Origin: Candidatus Curtissbacteria bacterium | GTDB lineage: Bacteria > Patescibacteriota > Microgenomatia > Curtissbacterales > GWA2-41-24 | Direction of reading: 5' to 3' | Assembly (NCBI GenBank): GCA_024654445.1 | Contig: JANLHP010000017.1 | Location: forward strand, 144,524 to 208,523 | Length of the DNA stretch: 64,000 nucleotides | Shown here: one piece after another, positions 56,899 to 64,000 of the stretch | How the letters are laid out: every line of letters begins with the position of its first letter | Numbering within the stretch: position 1 is the stretch's first letter | Program-made: the position numbers and the translations under genes | Notes under the pieces: model-generated | Told to the model about the DNA's origin: nothing | What the model saw: only the letters and a program-made list of their open reading frames with translations | Database searches by the model: none

Positions 56899-58038
56899 TT
56901 GAAGTTTAAGATTGAACAGGGCCAACTGACCAAAACATTACTTTCTGTTAACAAATCTCTTCTTTCGAAGGTAAATCTTCCTATTCTTTCTAATGTTTTG
57001 TTTTCTGTTTCCGGCAACAAGCTGGAAGTTCTTTCAACAAACCTCGAAACAGCAACCAAGGTAGTTGTTGATTGTACCGGTGAAGCTGACGGAAAAACGA
57101 CTCTTCCGGGCAAAACCCTTCTGGAGTTTGTTTCACAGTTGCCTGAGGGGGAGATACTTTTGGAGAAACTTGGTGAAGAGGTGATTGTTTCTACAAAGGG
57201 ATACAACGCAAGGTTTGCGACTCTCGCGGTCGAGGATTTTCCGGCAATTCCGAAGATAGAAAAAGGAAAGCATATAAAGCTCGACCCGAAGGATTTTATG
57301 AGGGCTGTCTCGAGGGTGGCGATGAGTGCCGCACAAGACGAAGGAAGGCCCATTTTAACCGGAGTCCTTTGTGAATTTGAGAAAAAAACCCTTTCTTGTG
57401 TTGCGACAGATGGTTACAGGTTAAGTTTCCAATCCGTGCCTTATGAGGGGGATATTCCCTCCTCGCTTAAAATTGTCGTCCCTTCAAAGTCTTTAATTGA
57501 AGCAGCCAAAATTGTCTCCGAGCTTTCTAGCGAAATAGGAGAAAACAAGATTGAGCTTTTGATAGCTGATGGTTTGAATCAGGTCAATTTTAAGATTGGA
57601 AATGTGGAGTTTACTTCCAGACTCATCGAAGGAGAATTTCCTAATTGGCAGAAAATTATCCCCAGCACGTTTGCTTCGAAGGCTAGGGTTTCCAAAGAGG
57701 ACTTTATTAAGGTGATTAGAATCGCGTCAATTTTTGCGCGGGACTCAGGAAACATAATCCGCTTGCAGCTTTTGGCAAATGGCGCAAAAGGTGCAGTACT
57801 CAAGGTTTTTGCAAACAATGTGCAAGTAGGGTCGAATGAAGCCGAAGCCGAGGTTGAGCTTACCGGCAAAGGTGGGGAAATCGCATTTAATTTTAAGTAT
57901 CTGCTGGAGATGCTTTCTTCTATTGAATCTTCTGATGTCGAATTTGAGATGATAGAAAGCTTAAATCCTGGAAGGCTGACGGTTCCCGAAGACAAGAGTT
58001 ACTTTCATATCGTGATGCCAGTTAGATTGCAGACATAA
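56899..58038 (+). CDS. dnaN: DNA polymerase III beta sliding clamp
   Basis: MKFKIEQGQLTKTLLSVNKSL..., three-domain clamp, 379 aa. TTG start preceded by gaggag. Confidence 0.9.
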   Translation: MKFKIEQGQLTKTLLSVNKSLLSKVNLPILSNVLFSVSGNKLEVLSTNLETATKVVVDCTGEADGKTTLPGKTLLEFVSQLPEGEILLEKLGEEVIVSTKGYNARFATLAVEDFPAIPKIEKGKHIKLDPKDFMRAVSRVAMSAAQDEGRPILTGVLCEFEKKTLSCVATDGYRLSFQSVPYEGDIPSSLKIVVPSKSLIEAAKIVSELSSEIGENKIELLIADGLNQVNFKIGNVEFTSRLIEGEFPNWQKIIPSTFASKARVSKEDFIKVIRIASIFARDSGNIIRLQLLANGAKGAVLKVFANNVQVGSNEAEAEVELTGKGGEIAFNFKYLLEMLSSIESSDVEFEMIESLNPGRLTVPEDKSYFHIVMPVRLQT

Positions 58039-58119: not shown

Positions 58120-58437
58120 ATGAGTATAAGGGTTCTTACTAAAAAGTATTTTCCGACCGAAGAAAAATATTTATTAATTGACCAGATTGTTAGGGCAGCA
58201 AACTCGATTGTTTTAAACATAGCAGAAGGGTCTGATCGTGGTACTGACAAAGACTTTGCGCTTTTTCTAAACCGTTCTCATACGTCTCTTAACGAGGTTG
58301 TTGCTTGTTTAGATATTGCCTTAGAAGAGGGATACATCACAATAAAAATTCACGAAGATTACTTAGGGCATGCAGCTGAATTGGGAGATCAAATTACTGC
58401 GTTTAGGAGAAAATTACTTATTAGTCCATCCAAATAA
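58120..58437 (+). CDS. four-helix-bundle protein (TIGR02436, 23S rRNA IVS protein family)
   Basis: LNIAEGSDRGTDKDFALFLNRSHTSLNEVVACLDIALEEGYI matches the family pattern AEG..R.s.kdF..Fl..a.gSl.E. Confidence 0.7.
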   Translation: MSIRVLTKKYFPTEEKYLLIDQIVRAANSIVLNIAEGSDRGTDKDFALFLNRSHTSLNEVVACLDIALEEGYITIKIHEDYLGHAAELGDQITAFRRKLLISPSK

Positions 58438-58500: not shown

Positions 58501-58803
58501 GTGTTTACTCCGATTGGGACTCTTCTAAAAACTTTGCCAAAAAGATCAAGAACGCCCGAGGCGATTGTTGCGCTGCACGTGAGGCAAGTATTTGGGAGTT
58601 CGCTTAAAAAGGTTTGTGCCGACTTACCTGAGACTTCTTTGGTGCTTGTTCGCGCCTCTACTTTCAAGGGCGGAGTGCTTAATGTAATTGCACCCTCTTT
58701 GCTTTCCGCGGAGCTTCATATGCGCGCTGGGGGGCTAATACAAGACATTAATGAAGCCCTCGGACGGAAGGCAGTAAAGCGGCTAAAGTTTAGGCAGAGT
58801 TAA
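58501..58803 (+). CDS. DciA-like DUF721 protein
   Basis: 100 aa. C-terminus ...GGVLNVIAPSLLSAELHMRAGGLIQDINEALGRKAVKRLKFRQS is typical of DUF721. Located next to dnaN, as DciA often is. Confidence 0.55.
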   Translation: MFTPIGTLLKTLPKRSRTPEAIVALHVRQVFGSSLKKVCADLPETSLVLVRASTFKGGVLNVIAPSLLSAELHMRAGGLIQDINEALGRKAVKRLKFRQS

Positions 58804-59384
58804 AGGTCTTCATGGCTTGGTTCTGTTCTTAATTCCGGATGTTGTTGCAGAAAAGTCGCGAGGTTAGTGGTCGGAAAGTGCCATATTTCTACAATTAGAC
58901 TACTGATAGGATTACCGAAAACTATTACTCCTTTTGAGCCCCAGAAGTGACCGGGGGCTGCAAATCCGTGTTGGCCGTAGATGAGTGCCTCCGGTTGTCC
59001 GAATTTTGCGATGTATCCATTTAAAGATCCTTTTTCTTTGGCGATTACCGGCTCTTCAATGAGCTGAACCTTGTCGTTTTCTATCTCGACTGTTGTTTGC
59101 CTGTTTTCGTTAGTTGTCGGATAAACGTAGATTGTTTTGCCGTTCTGCTGCTCGATTTTAATTGGTTCGCCGACTGCTTGTCTTAGCTCTTCTTCAGTAG
59201 TTTTGCCGGGGGTTACTTTGCCGAGCCATTTTACTTCGTCGTCCGAAGGTTTTCCCAGCAGGTTAAATAAAAAGACTGATGTTATGAACAAAGATGCTAA
59301 ACCAAGCAGTAAGAGCGGAGACTCTTTTTTTAGAAAAATTGAAATTCTATTTAGTGAGCTTTCGGTCATATTAAAATTCCACAC
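58800..59384 (-). CDS. hypothetical membrane-anchored protein
   Basis: 194-aa ORF with an N-terminal TM (LLLLGLASLFITSVFLFNLL). Directly downstream of the giant gene. Possible alternative start ATG 59369. Confidence 0.4.
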   Translation of the reverse strand: MWNFNMTESSLNRISIFLKKESPLLLLGLASLFITSVFLFNLLGKPSDDEVKWLGKVTPGKTTEEELRQAVGEPIKIEQQNGKTIYVYPTTNENRQTTVEIENDKVQLIEEPVIAKEKGSLNGYIAKFGQPEALIYGQHGFAAPGHFWGSKGVIVFGNPISSLIVEIWHFPTTNLATFLQQHPELRTEPSHEDL

Positions 59385-62300
59385 CCCCCATTAGACTATG
59401 CGTGAAATTGTAATGTTTCGGGTAAGTTGAAGGGTAATTTATAGGACCGCACGTTCTGGAGTTGTGTGTCTTCCAGACGACGTGAATTGCGATTGCCTCC
59501 GCGAAATCTTCGGCTTGGCTTTTTTGAGCGGGGTAACTACATATATAGCCCTCTGTCCAAGGAGATTCGTTTAGAAAGTTTTGATACGCTTGCAGTCCGT
59601 AGCATTGGACGATGTGACCGGATTCGTGAGCCAATACGTAAAGGGTGTTGTCCGGGTTTCCGACGCCTAGGTTTGAGATTGCAATGTGGTTGGGGCAAGT
59701 AACAAAGTTGAAGCCGTCCGAATGGTCTCTATGAAGTATTACAGTCCCTTGTGAGCAGACAAGATTTAGGTAAGCGGGGGCGCGAGAAAGTGCAGTAATT
59801 GCCTCCATTTCCAGCGCTTTTTCGCTGTCTGTCCAAGGACCTTGAAAAGTGAAGCAGTTGATAGCAGCTGGCGAACCTACTCTGACTACAGTGGTCGCAA
59901 AGTCGGCAATAGGGTCTCCGCCTTCGGGCACGGCTGTTACCTTAATTGTATTTAAGATTACAGAGTCGTTGTAGCTTTCGTTAACTCCAATTGTAATTTG
60001 CGCTGTACAGCTTTCGTTTGGCGCGAGAGTGTCAGGGCAAGCCACCTGTGGGTTTGTGGGTGCAATAGCTTTACCCAAAACCTTTGTTTCGTCCAAATTT
60101 TGGATATTGTTTAATTTTACCTCTTTTGCCGTAAGGGTGATGGTGAATGTGATTTGTTGAGTTTGGCCTGGTGGTTGGTTCGAGATGACGTCGGGTTGGG
60201 CTGTTTTTGTAAGCGTAAAAAAGGTATTATCTCCAGCGATTGGCCCTTTTATATAACTGTTGTTGCTGGAAAATGCTGTCGATGTGACTATTCCCATCAG
60301 GATTCCGCCGATTCCGATTGCGCCTAATCCCCCGAATACTGAGATTGCCAGGAAAGGAGAGGAAACCGAAAGACTGCCCGCAAGCAGTGAGCTCGCGCCC
60401 GCGCTTAAGCCTCCGAAAAGTCCGCTTGCCGCGCCGGCGAAGCCTCCCCAGACAGCAGAACTTGCACCAGTGATGCCACTGCCTATGGATGAGAAGAGCC
60501 CGCCAATGGAGCCCCCGATCCCGTTAATGGCGCTTGTTATTGGTGCCCATGGGCGCGCAACAAAAGCCAGGGTTTTACCAGGGTTAAGAAAACCAATGGC
60601 TGCACCAATTGTTCCGCCGATGGCTCCCCCAATGAGCGCTCCGGGTATACCTCCAACGAAGAATCCTACGGTTGCTCCTATTGTTGCGCCTGCCGCAATC
60701 CCGGCGAGAAGCCCAAGCGCTTTAATGCCCATGCTTATGAGTAAGCCGGCAAGAAGAGCGCCCGCTACCATTGCTGCTTTTTTGATTAGGTTAATTAGTT
60801 TCGGCGCCGCGAGTAATGCCAGGCCTAATGGGTTAGCGGCAAAAGCAAGGCGGCCCAACTTCGCTATTTTCGTGATGGATTTGGCGGTACTTACGATACC
60901 CTTGCCCGTGTGGAATATGGACTTTGCCTGGTCCAAGCCGGAATAACTTGTTCCCAGAGAATAGACTAGCGAGGTGAACATCCTTTTGGGAGAAGCTTGA
61001 GTGCTCAAACTTACTGGTACAAAAATCCCGGGGCTTTGCCTGAAGATTGCGCGGTACGAATACCACATTGCGGCAGAAGATTGGACTAGAGTTCTGTGGT
61101 TGGGAAGCCCTCGCGCCCAACTTCTAAAGATGGCTGTTATTTTTGGCCTTTTGAGGGAAAGTTTTTGAGCTTCTTTAAGTGTTGTTAAATTTTTCCTGGC
61201 AAGGTTAAGCTTTTTTCTGTCTCGAAGACTCAACGAAGGGCGTGTTTCTAATGATTTTACTTCTCTTTCAGCTTTTTCCAGATTTGTTCTGAATCTTTGC
61301 TGATTAAATGTGAGAAGCGCGTAAGTTGCCTCTTTTTGTCCATTTTCTGTTCCCAGTCTTGCACCTGCTACCGCATTTTTAATGCCTGACACAAAAGTCA
61401 GATTTTTTGGCCGGATACCTGTTAGGCCAAGCGCGCTTATTTCATCGGGTGCCAGCGGTTTTAGGCCTAGATCTTTTGCTAACTCTCCCGCGATTTCTTT
61501 GAAAGGAAGAGTGCTTGGAGCTCTTGCTCCGGCGGTCGCGGTTCGCGCGATCGCCCTATTGTGGGCTACTTCTTTGATCCGCGCGAGTTGTTCTAAATTT
61601 GGCAAGTTGCGGGATTCAATAGATGGTTTTGTGGAACTCGCGATTTGCGCCTGATAATTTCCAAGATACGTTCCTAGATCTAGTTCCAGATCTACTTGTC
61701 GCGTTTGTGTTGTTAGGGGGGCTTGGCTTTGGATGACCTCTTCGACTGCGAGCTCTATTTTTTCAGGAATTTGAGAATTAGGGGCTGAGAGTTTCGCGAC
61801 TTTTTCAAGATTTCCTAAAACTGCAACTTGTTCCAGGTTCAGTGAAGGGTTCGTGGCTACGACTGTGGTTTCTTTTTCGATCATATCGTAAAGTTTTTCT
61901 TCCGGGATTTTTACTTGTTGGGTTTGAGGATGAACAAGTATGGTTTGGGTTACGCTATCAGCAACGACCTGGTTAATCTGTGCAGCATCCTGAATGGTCG
62001 CGAGGTTTTCAAAGATTTCCCTTGCGCTTTCCTGGCTAATTTCTGTGGCAACTTTTAATAACTCCTCGTGGTTTAAATTGGTGACGCCAATCGTAGGCAA
62101 CAGGGCGACAATTTTTTCTTGGAGGGCCCCGTTTAATTCAGGCTTGATTATTTCGGTGTGGTGTTTGAGTAATGGCTCAATTTCTTCTAGTTCTGCTAAA
62201 ACGCCGAGTGCCCCGATACGTTTGTCGTGCGCGAAAGGGGTAAGATGAGGGACTTGTGATTCAAGGTGATTTTCGCCCTCAACTTTTTTAATGGCTTCTT

Positions 62301-62520
62301 GGATTTTTTCCGGATCGTTCACGCTTTCGACTGCTTGGGTTCCGAGAATGTTTTCAAGCTGAACCATAATCGACTGGCGATTTATTTCGACGTCGCCAAA
62401 TTGTGCCTTGAGTTCTTCATCGGTGGGGAATCTGGTACCAGAACGAAGGCAGTTCAGGAATAAAAGAGTGGCTTCTTTCAGAACTTCTTGGTAAGACTTT
62501 GCGGTTATGTCGGCGGGCAT
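59371..62520 (-). CDS. giant (1049 aa) protein: ~520-aa N-terminal soluble region, glycine-zipper-rich polytopic membrane core, C-terminal HExxH zincin-like (DUF4157-like) domain
   Basis: No signal peptide. Residues ~540-760 are Gly/Ala-rich TM helices (GIAAGATIGATVGFFVGGIPGALIGGAIGGTIGAAIG...). C-terminus has YVLAHESGHIVQ, matching the DUF4157 LAHELxHVxQ signature. Confidence 0.6.
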   Translation of the reverse strand: MPADITAKSYQEVLKEATLLFLNCLRSGTRFPTDEELKAQFGDVEINRQSIMVQLENILGTQAVESVNDPEKIQEAIKKVEGENHLESQVPHLTPFAHDKRIGALGVLAELEEIEPLLKHHTEIIKPELNGALQEKIVALLPTIGVTNLNHEELLKVATEISQESAREIFENLATIQDAAQINQVVADSVTQTILVHPQTQQVKIPEEKLYDMIEKETTVVATNPSLNLEQVAVLGNLEKVAKLSAPNSQIPEKIELAVEEVIQSQAPLTTQTRQVDLELDLGTYLGNYQAQIASSTKPSIESRNLPNLEQLARIKEVAHNRAIARTATAGARAPSTLPFKEIAGELAKDLGLKPLAPDEISALGLTGIRPKNLTFVSGIKNAVAGARLGTENGQKEATYALLTFNQQRFRTNLEKAEREVKSLETRPSLSLRDRKKLNLARKNLTTLKEAQKLSLKRPKITAIFRSWARGLPNHRTLVQSSAAMWYSYRAIFRQSPGIFVPVSLSTQASPKRMFTSLVYSLGTSYSGLDQAKSIFHTGKGIVSTAKSITKIAKLGRLAFAANPLGLALLAAPKLINLIKKAAMVAGALLAGLLISMGIKALGLLAGIAAGATIGATVGFFVGGIPGALIGGAIGGTIGAAIGFLNPGKTLAFVARPWAPITSAINGIGGSIGGLFSSIGSGITGASSAVWGGFAGAASGLFGGLSAGASSLLAGSLSVSSPFLAISVFGGLGAIGIGGILMGIVTSTAFSSNNSYIKGPIAGDNTFFTLTKTAQPDVISNQPPGQTQQITFTITLTAKEVKLNNIQNLDETKVLGKAIAPTNPQVACPDTLAPNESCTAQITIGVNESYNDSVILNTIKVTAVPEGGDPIADFATTVVRVGSPAAINCFTFQGPWTDSEKALEMEAITALSRAPAYLNLVCSQGTVILHRDHSDGFNFVTCPNHIAISNLGVGNPDNTLYVLAHESGHIVQCYGLQAYQNFLNESPWTEGYICSYPAQKSQAEDFAEAIAIHVVWKTHNSRTCGPINYPSTYPKHYNFTHSLMGGVEF

Positions 62521-62796
62521 GGCTGGTTTAACTCTAATATAGCATTTGGGGAGGTATCACAAGTACGAAAAGTATCACAAGTATCAGAAGATTCAGAAAA
62601 CTCAGCCAAATCGGCATATCAGAAAGTCTGAAACTCGGATGTGATTTAAGGTGGCATCCTTGAGTCATCGAAAGGTGCCCTACCTTAAATCTTAAAAGTT
62701 CAAGGATGAGACCTTAATACAAGGATCTCACCTTGAACACAGACATTCAGGTTACCTGATACCCTGACCTTCTGAGTATTCAGAGTATTCTGAAAG
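62521..62796. repeat. repeat-rich intergenic region between VirB4-like gene and giant gene
   Basis: Direct repeats gtatcacaagta x2, caaggatgagacctt / caaggatctcacctt and ctgagtattcagagtattctga. Confidence 0.4.
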
Positions 62797-64000
62797 TTAC
62801 GGTAGATCTGGCTTGGGCTGAGTGGGAGCTTGAGCGAATTGATCAACTACTTGTTGAGACTTTTTTCGCATTTCCAGAAGCTCTTCCGGTTTTGTGGTAA
62901 CGAGATAGTGTTCGTCTTCTGAAGCGATTACTCTTATCGCGACGTGATTCGCGCCCGCGAAAAAAATTCCTTCACCGATATCAGCCGCGAGGAGTAAATG
63001 CTTTTCGCCTTCTGACAAATAAAAGGTGTCAGCGACCTTTTCGATCGCGGCTGGCGACTGTTTAAGGAGAATTTGGATGGAAGAGTTTGTAACTATTGCC
63101 CTGCCGTAATCTGTGTTTAAGAAATCTTCGACGTCTTGAGTGATGGTGGTCAAGCCAAGGAAATACTTTCTGGCGCGTTTGGCGATGCTGTACATAAACG
63201 TCGCGCTGTCGGGATACTGCATCATGTACCAGGCCTCATCGACGATGAGCAAGCGTTTCCTAATGTCGTTTTTGATTCTCGTCCAAATGAAATCAAGAAT
63301 GAGATACATTGCAATCGGTCGTAGTTCATCTTCGAGGTCTTTAATTGAAAAAACGGTGAACGTGTTTTTAAGGTCGATATTACTTTGCTGGTTAAATATT
63401 CCCAAAAGCGAGCCTTTGACGAATTTTTCGAGCCTGTCAGCGAGACCTTTGGCGGCTGTTTCTTCCATGCCTAGAAGTACTTTGTAGAGATCTTCCATCA
63501 GGGGCGGCTCGTTCTTTTGAGTGGCTGGGTCTGGCGTTATGCCCTTTGATTTATATGTCGCGACGAGCGCTTTATCTAGAATCGCGTCTTCCGTTGGCGA
63601 AAGTTCGCCCATGACAACTTTGAGGAAACCGTGGAGAGTAAGGATTTTAAGGCCGAGTTCGTTTTCGCCTTCTTCGTAAACGCCAGAAAGATCAAAGGGG
63701 TTAATTTTCGCGGGTGAACTGAAGCTGAAGGAGATGTATTCACCGCCAATTGCTTCGCAGAGGTTTTTATATTCCTGCTCGGGGTCGATAACGATTACTT
63801 CGGTCCCGAACATTAGGGATCTTAAGGCTTCGAGTTTGACGAGATAAGATTTTCCGGCGCCGGATTTGGCAAAGACTACGGAATTGGCGTTTTCTTGAGA
63901 GAACCTGTCGAAAATTACGAGCGATCCATTGTGTTCATTGATGCCGTACATAATGCCCGAGTTTGAGGTAAGAGCGGATGAAATGAATGGGAAAGTGGTC
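62797..64000 (-). CDS. VirB4/TrbE/CagE-family type IV secretion ATPase, C-terminal part (gene continues beyond window end)
   Basis: Walker A VVFAKSGAGKSYLVK. VIVIDPEQEY. Walker B LLIVDEAWYMM...KRARKYFLGLTTITQDVEDF. The frame stays open past 63951 to the window edge. Confidence 0.75.
   Translation of the reverse strand, partial: TTFPFISSALTSNSGIMYGINEHNGSLVIFDRFSQENANSVVFAKSGAGKSYLVKLEALRSLMFGTEVIVIDPEQEYKNLCEAIGGEYISFSFSSPAKINPFDLSGVYEEGENELGLKILTLHGFLKVVMGELSPTEDAILDKALVATYKSKGITPDPATQKNEPPLMEDLYKVLLGMEETAAKGLADRLEKFVKGSLLGIFNQQSNIDLKNTFTVFSIKDLEDELRPIAMYLILDFIWTRIKNDIRKRLLIVDEAWYMMQYPDSATFMYSIAKRARKYFLGLTTITQDVEDFLNTDYGRAIVTNSSIQILLKQSPAAIEKVADTFYLSEGEKHLLLAADIGEGIFFAGANHVAIRVIASEDEHYLVTTKPEELLEMRKKSQQVVDQFAQAPTQPKPDLP

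Follow-up and report, generated by a model that had tools for sequence, protein, structure and literature searches.

A putative envelope-hydrolase component with a gluzincin-type tail beside virB4 in the type IV secretion locus of a Candidatus Curtissbacteria genome

We analysed a 64,000-nucleotide stretch of a Candidatus Curtissbacteria contig (JANLHP010000017.1, assembly GCA_024654445.1, positions 144,524 to 208,523), hereafter the window, whose end carries part of a type IV secretion system (T4SS) locus. Three minus-strand genes are the subject here: virB4, which is cut by the window end; the gene for a giant modular membrane protein, which lies directly downstream of virB4 on the same strand, as the initial annotation had described it; and small194, the gene for its small neighbour (Table 1). 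The initial annotation had placed two small genes in the interval 58800-59384; it holds the single 194-residue gene, and the next open reading frame, DciA-like (58501..58803), is on the other strand. The giant ends in a metallopeptidase domain of the zincin type, and we consider it probable that the protein is a membrane-anchored envelope hydrolase of the secretion apparatus, with small194 as its cognate partner.

Table 1. Features of the T4SS locus and its surroundings in the window
Feature	Position	Strand	Description or basis
Giant modular membrane protein	59371..62520	-	1049 aa; open reading frame, gene directly after virB4
Soluble N-region	60841..62520	-	~560 aa, predicted cytoplasmic; no hydrophobic segment; K/R-rich before first membrane segment
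Gly/Ala-rich membrane core	60271..60840	-	aa 561-750 (~190 aa); ~5 hydrophobic segments
Ig-like beta-sandwich spacer	59881..60225	-	aa ~766-880; Pfam DUF7507 weak, 5.7e-5 on C-terminal fragment
Junction motif VGSPAAINC	59854..59880	-	consensus [IV]G.PP..C, between Ig-like domain and catalytic tail; translation checked
Putative gluzincin-type metallopeptidase domain	59374..59865	-	aa 886-1049, C-terminal; M34-like fold (predicted)
HESGH zinc-binding/catalytic motif	59614..59628	-	H965, E966, H969; translation checked
EDFAE motif	59497..59511	-	E1004 presumed third zinc ligand; E1008; after invariant Y996; translation checked
small194	58800..59384	-	194 aa; N-terminal membrane anchor and ~150-aa extracytoplasmic domain (predicted); overlaps giant's stop by 14 nt
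VirB4-type T4SS ATPase	62797..>64000	-	C-terminal ~400 aa, gene runs past window end; profile matches, Walker motifs
virB4/giant gene spacer	62521..62796	-	276 nt, structured; RNA folding
dnaA	55239..56597		
dnaN	56899..58038		
23S_rRNA_IVP-family gene	58120..58437	+	7e-24
DciA-like gene	58501..58803	+	weak, 2.5e-4

The partial gene at the window end is of the VirB4 type, as first proposed. Walker A (KSGAGKS), Walker B (LLIVDEAW) and TTITQD motifs can be read in its translation, and it matches VirB4/TraC families at 1e-84 to 1e-33: in NCBIfam, NF045971 ('VirB4-like conjugal transfer ATPase, CD1110 family') at 5.9e-84, TraC at 3.1e-51 and VirB4_CagE at 1.6e-33. In Pfam, the fragment matches P-loop_TraG (1.7e-29) and AAA_10 (2.3e-13). 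The bit scores stay under the full-length cut-offs because only 400 residues lie within the window. FtsK, HerA and VirD4 identities, the first two of which had been named as the alternative, are ruled out by these matches, as families of the coupling-protein type score far worse on the fragment (T4SS-DNA_transf 0.009, SXT_TraD 0.04). The window VirB4 is 84-87% identical to that of other Curtissbacteria loci (L002-L004).

A scan of the VirB4 fragment against one genome per species found at least 597 relatives, from which 80 loci were kept; counts below are given over 81 loci, numbered with the prefix L. Because the window end lies inside virB4, the remaining parts of the apparatus are known from the relatives only, several of which (L001, L002-L004, L044, L082 and L083) have genes for PrgI-domain and TraC-N-like proteins directly upstream of virB4. 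Clustering of open reading frames across the 81 loci gave a recurrent order of PrgI-domain, TraC-N-like, VirB4, a large multi-span protein of 600-1100 residues and a small single-span protein, followed by dnaN/dnaA on the opposite strand. In an alternative arrangement the large protein and its small partner lie upstream of the PrgI-like gene: the large-protein gene directly follows virB4 in 30 of the 50 classified loci, and in most others it lies 3-6 genes upstream of virB4. Additionally, rnpA and yidD are among the neighbours on the dnaA/dnaN side of the giant and small194 genes, and the locus therefore lies beside the replication origin. The T4SS of Patescibacteria has been described as deriving from the monoderm MPF-FATA class, located near dnaA and usually lacking a relaxase (Quinonero-Coronel et al. 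2025, PMC12102498). The cluster matches this description and the window locus is this published system; the proposal of a T4SS-like apparatus of the candidate phyla radiation is supported.

The giant is 100% identical to the NCBI entry 'hypothetical protein NUV69_03385' (Candidatus Curtissbacteria). It had been described as a three-part protein with a soluble N-terminal region, a membrane core and a C-terminal HExxH domain; these parts are all present, and a fourth, the Ig-like domain at residues ~766-880, had been overlooked. The N-region has no hydrophobic leader, in line with the earlier description, and no Pfam or PDB relative. Its homologues are confined to four loci (L001, L002, L004 and L069), which marks it as lineage-specific and fast-evolving. 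The Gly/Ala-rich polytopic core is confirmed at ~190 residues, not ~220; it contains 22% Gly, 18% Ala and no Asp or Glu, and Pfam Gly-zipper_Omp matches it weakly (3.5e-3). In an AlphaFold2 model (pLDDT 88.5), the Ig-like region is all-beta with pLDDT >90, and its Foldseek matches are beta-sandwich proteins; of the 81 loci, 28 match a local profile hidden Markov model (HMM) of this domain. All 56 long family members run from N-region through membrane core to zincin; the Ig-like HMM matches between core and zincin in 49 of them, and the junction Cys is invariant in the 56. Shorter zincin proteins of 300-530 residues (P0003-P0024) are common as well; they have the membrane core but not the long N-region.

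The Ig-like and zincin parts together contain 8 Cys residues, with a conserved C889/C922 pair, vs 1 in the 560-residue N-region. This content, the odd number of membrane segments and the K/R-rich flank on the N-terminal side suggest an N-in/C-out topology in which the tail would be extracytoplasmic. We also observed that contigs of four independent assemblies (L002-L005, Curtissbacteria relatives) end inside or just before the giant gene; assembly may have broken there because the gene varies between strains or is low in complexity.

The C-terminal domain carries YVLAHESGHIVQ, which includes the HESGH motif, as the initial annotation had reported. Y961, H965, E966, G968, H969, Y996, E1004 and E1008 are invariant in a 20-sequence alignment, in which the motifs are spaced as LYTLAHESGH, 26 residues, Y, 7 residues, EDFAE. 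HESGH is also invariant in a 24-sequence alignment, and among 56 sequences E966 is invariant and H965 and H969 are at least 90% conserved. The Foldseek search of the two-domain model was dominated by Ig-like matches, and the zincin was therefore re-modelled alone (pLDDT 90.6, pTM 0.86). The resulting model shows an alpha/beta N-subdomain, an active-site helix bearing HExxH and a following helix bearing EDFAE with the Glu ligand, and its top Foldseek matches are PPEP-3, PPEP-1/Zmp1 and anthrax lethal factor (prob 1.00, TM 0.5-0.59); structure prediction thus upheld the zincin fold, which is M34-like. The domain is a gluzincin with its closest fold relatives in MEROPS M34. It resembles the M34/ATLF enzymes (PPEP-1/-2/-3, lethal factor) in fold and in the constellation of HExxH, Tyr and Glu. 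However, those enzymes are secreted, whereas the window domain is tethered to a membrane protein and is only 14-17% identical to the PPEPs; there is no Pfam match to ATLF for the window protein at E<=1, and a PDB profile search gives PPEP at E 0.23. The best PDB sequence-profile match is 9urd_A, a 'substrate import-associated zinc metallohydrolase lipoprotein' (1.2e-4, spanning HExxH...Y...EDFxE), with further weak matches to assorted zincin families (TIGR04549 0.0036, Peptidase_Mx1 0.004-0.019). The TIGR04549/Peptidase_Mx1 proteins (PDB 9urd, 4l7a) are thus the nearest by profile and are likewise surface-exposed zincins. Judged by sequence, the domain is too divergent for membership of any curated family, and the HExxH...Y...E site appears catalytically intact.

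The initial annotation had matched the domain to the DUF4157 (PF13699) signature, typically found at N-termini. DUF4157 proteins are zincin-like and share an HExxH followed by Q a few residues on; nevertheless, no HMM search reproduced the match (window protein at E<=1, 24 members at E<=0.1, 56 members at E<=0.01, ~80 family members in all). The domain is also strictly C-terminal, ending at the protein C-terminus in the 150 best representatives (150/150) and in the 56 long members (56/56), and its context is a T4SS rather than the loci of extracellular contractile injection systems or polymorphic toxins. In an exhaustive profile search, 898 representatives of 50%-identity clusters matched at E<=1e-3, 158 of them at E<=1e-30. 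In word-index searches, an alignment served well as query; the full-length protein and the bare C-terminal fragment gave only 1-2 matches, probably swamped by Gly-rich words.

The zincin is one of several enzymes in this position. Giants that have the Ig-like domain and no zincin continue past the Ig-like domain for 165-200 residues, which usually form a Peptidase_M23 domain (E down to 8.5e-22) and once a CHAP domain, and other genes directly after virB4 end in CHAP (1.1e-5), Peptidase_C39_2, NAGPA or M23. Among the loci with a classifiable tail, M23 accounts for 28, zincin for 10, CHAP for 6, C39-like for 3 and NAGPA for 2. The junction [IV]G.PP..C precedes zincin, M23 and other tails in 23 of 29 giants (L001-L081), and tails may be exchanged by recombination at this joint. 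Tail type does not track VirB4 similarity. The nearest VirB4 neighbour carries a different tail for 9 of 11 zincin loci, and three loci with VirB4 90-91% identical and giants of one BLAST family nevertheless end in M23 (L052), CHAP (L055) and zincin (L062). Similarly, L069 has the window-type N-region and 82% VirB4 identity, but an M23 tail. Between the window and L001, identity falls from 87% for VirB4 through 55% for DnaN, 50% for DnaA and 39% for small194 to 32% for the giant; here the C-terminal domain of VirB4 is far more conserved than either replication protein, next to a giant at the other extreme.

Each tail type comes with its own small downstream partner. A small194 homologue adjoins the zincin gene in all 12 testable loci, comprising 9 of 9 seeded by VirB4 and 3 seeded by the zincin, and in the VirB4-seeded loci it is never adjacent to another tail type. 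In 2 of the 3 zincin-seeded loci the zincin protein directly follows VirB4, with the small194 homologue inverted in one of them, and the third adjoins weak T4SS-pilin-like genes. In L084 (5065-8762) the zincin sits on a short 253-residue protein after a separate 974-residue gene, near weak T4SS_pilin-like genes and not virB4. M23 tails pair with two mutually homologous families, f13 and f23 (18 loci; hhalign 99.1%), CHAP and NAGPA tails with anchored Big_5 Ig-like proteins, and C39-like tails with family f72. The pairing, together with the scatter of tails relative to VirB4, indicates that tail and partner move together as a cassette. Our literature search found no paper describing the zincin tail or the swapping of tails and partners. 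Homology of small194 to the other partner families was ruled out by hhalign (<12% probability). Its weak matches are to BamE (4 of 10 members) and DUF4309 (3 of 10), families with BLIP-like, inhibitor-type folds. No PDB sequence-profile match was found at E<=10 and no Pfam match to VirB8, and a VirB8/NTF2-like reading of small194 is unsupported by sequence.

The T4SS itself, and a peptidase-tailed giant after virB4 in Saccharibacteria, are already known, in contrast to the initial annotation, which held that this combination corresponds to no described T4SS component. Southlakia epibionticum requires the T4SS cluster for epibiotic growth (Wang et al. 2023, PMC10633639), and according to PMC12857230, which cites that study, no T4SS other than that of Patescibacteria has been reported as essential for the growth of its owner. 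In S. epibionticum ML1, SEML1_0007 lies directly after virB4 (SEML1_0008), has 1113 residues with a Hedgehog/DD-peptidase fold at 951-1105, and is essential by transposon sequencing; the genes after it, for a lysozyme/Cys-peptidase protein and for exported Ig-like proteins, are likewise essential (PMC10633639 supplement). Compared by position and published description, the window giant is the positional counterpart of SEML1_0007. Both genes follow virB4 near the origin, encode proteins of ~1100 residues (1113 vs 1049) with a metallopeptidase-type domain in the last ~160, and are followed by genes for smaller exported proteins. They differ in that the SEML1_0007 tail is of the Hedgehog/DD-peptidase (LAS) type, with nearest AlphaFold-database neighbours annotated M15B/M23, and not an HExxH zincin, and in that the separate lysozyme/Cys-peptidase gene is absent in the window.

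Monoderm T4SSs are also known to encode membrane-anchored wall hydrolases (PMC12102498). The VirB1-type enzymes PrgK (pCF10), TraG (pIP501), CwlT (ICEBs1) and TcpG (pCW3) resemble the giant in being encoded in the T4SS cluster; they are membrane-anchored or exported and carry extracytoplasmic hydrolase modules, an arrangement predicted for the giant too. The catalytic module of the giant is instead an M34-like gluzincin with no glycosidase or amidase; the N-region of ~560 residues, predicted to be cytoplasmic, the multi-span core rich in Gly and Ala and the Ig-like spacer are further differences, and no sequence homology was detected between it and these hydrolases. PrgK directly follows the VirB4 protein PrgJ, precedes the small single-span PrgL, and carries LytM (M23), SLT and CHAP modules, so that M23 and CHAP modules are common to PrgK and the relatives of the window giant. 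By analogy, the giant probably works like the VirB1-like monoderm hydrolases as their functional counterpart.

Our preferred reading, the zincin version of a T4SS membrane-anchored envelope hydrolase, is based on the domain architecture, the zincin fold, the conserved active-site residues, the position in the T4SS cluster, the equivalence of the slot and the pairing of tail and partner; the topology, enzymatic activity and substrate of the giant and the role of small194 are inferred. The N-region and Gly/Ala core would anchor the protein beside the VirB4/PrgI machinery, and the Ig-like spacer would hold the catalytic tail outside the membrane. The tail would be an exchangeable cassette joined at [IV]G.PP..C, a peptidoglycan hydrolase (M23, CHAP) in most relatives and an M34-like gluzincin here, and would cut peptide bonds in an envelope layer, either the cell's own wall or that of the host, and thereby open a way for the secretion channel or pilus. 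small194 would be the extracytoplasmic partner of the tail, acting as a regulator, inhibitor or adaptor. The functional assignment follows mainly from position and modularity, since the zincin occupies a slot held elsewhere by cell-wall hydrolases. Because it is a zincin instead of a member of a recognised peptidoglycan-hydrolase family (SLT/lysozyme, CHAP/NlpC-P60, M23), the giant is placed with these enzymes by way of working rather than by sequence.

Several points weigh against this reading. No member of this zincin family and no M34-type enzyme is known to cut peptidoglycan, and the closest solved structures to the zincin are proteases that cleave proteins. The grounds for equating the giant with wall hydrolases are its position and the swapping of domains and not catalytic-domain homology, the predicted topology draws on hydropathy, charge and Cys content only, and beyond virB4 the apparatus is known from relatives only. 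In addition, a large cytoplasmic N-region and a multi-span core are not known from the characterised monoderm T4SS hydrolases. Finally, tail exchange as frequent as that seen here, with three tails at 90-91% VirB4 identity, would be unexpected if the enzyme remodels its own wall only.

Exchange of the cassette is easier to explain if the target varies and lies outside the cell, for instance in the host envelope or in competitors, than if the cell remodels its own wall, although the pattern is not decisive. One alternative, which we regard as unlikely, is a contact weapon resembling a polymorphic toxin, in which the surface-tethered giant would attack the envelope of a host or competitor with its variable tail and small194 would be the immunity protein that protects the producer's own envelope. 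It shares most of its evidence with the envelope-hydrolase reading and differs from it in the target and in the role of the partner. Polymorphic toxin and immunity cassettes (CdiA-CT/CdiI, Rhs, LXG and the effector-immunity pairs of Xanthomonadales T4SSs) likewise have variable C-terminal enzymes after a junction, a co-varying downstream gene and frequent exchange. Conserved scaffolds with variable C-terminal domains joined at a conserved motif, a separate partner family for each tail (zincin with small194 in 12/12, M23 with f13/f23 in 18 loci, CHAP/NAGPA with Big_5) and tails that switch between genomes with VirB4 90-91% identical all fit this picture. So do the faster evolution of the giant than of DnaA and DnaN (32% vs 50-55% identity) and the weak BamE/DUF4309 matches of small194, families with BLIP-like folds of the inhibitor type. 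However, the giant is an integral membrane protein in a secretion operon with no toxin-delivery domain and no evident release mechanism, there is one copy per locus with no orphan arrays of tail and immunity cassettes in the loci examined, and the Big_5 Ig-like partners of CHAP and NAGPA tails look structural rather than inhibitory. The Saccharibacteria counterpart and a downstream exported Ig-like protein are essential on the host, which fits a machine part, yet immunity genes can also score as essential.

Another, quite unlikely possibility is that tail and partner form a host-interface cassette matched to the envelope chemistry of the host, with M23 or CHAP for hosts with exposed murein and the zincin for proteinaceous surfaces (S-layer, sheath, possibly archaeal). 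If true, tail type would predict the host range of uncultured Patescibacteria from their genomes, and the zincin would add a new class to the enzymes that breach envelopes.

The fold of the zincin also invites comparison with regulatory processing proteases. In this PPEP-like alternative, the zincin would cleave a specific surface protein, such as small194, pilins or adhesins, and thereby control attachment, detachment or maturation of the T4SS or pilus instead of degrading a wall. The closest solved structures, PPEP-1/-2/-3 and lethal factor, are all sequence-specific protein endopeptidases. PPEP genes adjoin the genes of their substrates, and here too a partner gene is always adjacent, with Pro-rich tethers behind the membrane anchor in several small194 homologues (PVPPPPQ, NPPPPA). 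However, the tether of the window small194 lacks Pro-Pro, and Pro-rich tethers are common in exported proteins. Given the low identity to PPEPs (14-17%), the missing Pfam ATLF match and the bulk wall hydrolases that fill the same slot in relatives, we hold this alternative to be decidedly improbable.

The reading of the initial annotation, a VirB6-like channel subunit with an accessory effector or toxin domain of the DUF4157 type, is very improbable: in size and polytopic core the giant does recall the 'extended VirB6' proteins, whose hydrophilic domains are large (PMC12857230), and VirB6 homologues are reported as scarce in Microgenomatia (PMC12102498), so that a divergent one is missing from the clusters, but the core is a Gly-zipper of low complexity, no TrbL/VirB6 HMM matches the window protein at E<=1 or 56 relatives at E<=0.01, a VirB6-like SEML1_0013 exists in Saccharibacteria in addition to the separate giant SEML1_0007, another candidate is present in many Microgenomatia loci, and DUF4157 is excluded by HMM and domain position. 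That candidate for the 'missing' VirB6-like subunit is a conserved protein of ~550 residues with 9-10 predicted membrane segments and no Pfam match (L002:161-1750, and family f11 in 16 loci, for example L044:3157-4782); in many Microgenomatia loci its gene lies upstream of the PrgI-like one, separated from it by a few genes.

Around these genes, the spacer between virB4 and the giant gene is predicted to be strongly folded on the coding strand, with a minimum free energy of -85.2 kcal/mol vs -64.0+/-5.0 in shuffles (z -4.2, 0/200). It carries nested inverted repeats and hairpins and an 18-nt tandem repeat (62554-62589); it has no Rfam match, and its sequence is not conserved in relatives. An Rfam search of 58-64 kb likewise gave no match, and a promoter and terminator scan of the same region found fewer sites than in shuffles and was uninformative. 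In PHROGs, there was a weak metallo-protease match and no phage context. The 23S_rRNA_IVP-family and DciA-like genes sit between dnaN and the T4SS genes, and IVP-family genes recur close to the T4SS cluster in several relatives (L003, L068, L075, L079 and L081). Titles and gene content place the kept loci in Patescibacteria, though many titles name other groups: many contigs with a Patescibacteria-type T4SS are titled Pseudomonadales, Gammaproteobacteria, Nevskiaceae or Candidatus Methanoperedens (L006, L007, L012, L014, L076 and others), which suggests mis-binning or mislabelling.

In summary, our analysis refines a known system and does not add one of a new kind. Its new elements are the zincin family, the recognition of a modular hydrolase scaffold in the unannotated gene beside virB4 in Microgenomatia-type loci, and the cassette behaviour of tails and partners. 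The fast-evolving 'hypothetical' gene next to virB4 turns out to be one modular protein family across loci of the Microgenomatia and Paceibacteria types. For these groups, the published survey reported VirB1- and VirB6-like genes as scarce or unlinked to virB4, with VirB6 homologues scarce in Microgenomatia and VirB1 homologues mostly not associated with virB4 (PMC12102498). Furthermore, a sizeable, previously unannotated zincin family (898 representatives) is defined, whose members are confined to the C-terminal tails of proteins of this kind. The strict pairing of tail and partner, combined with the rapid exchange of tails, leads to testable hypotheses on how these episymbionts breach or remodel cell envelopes.

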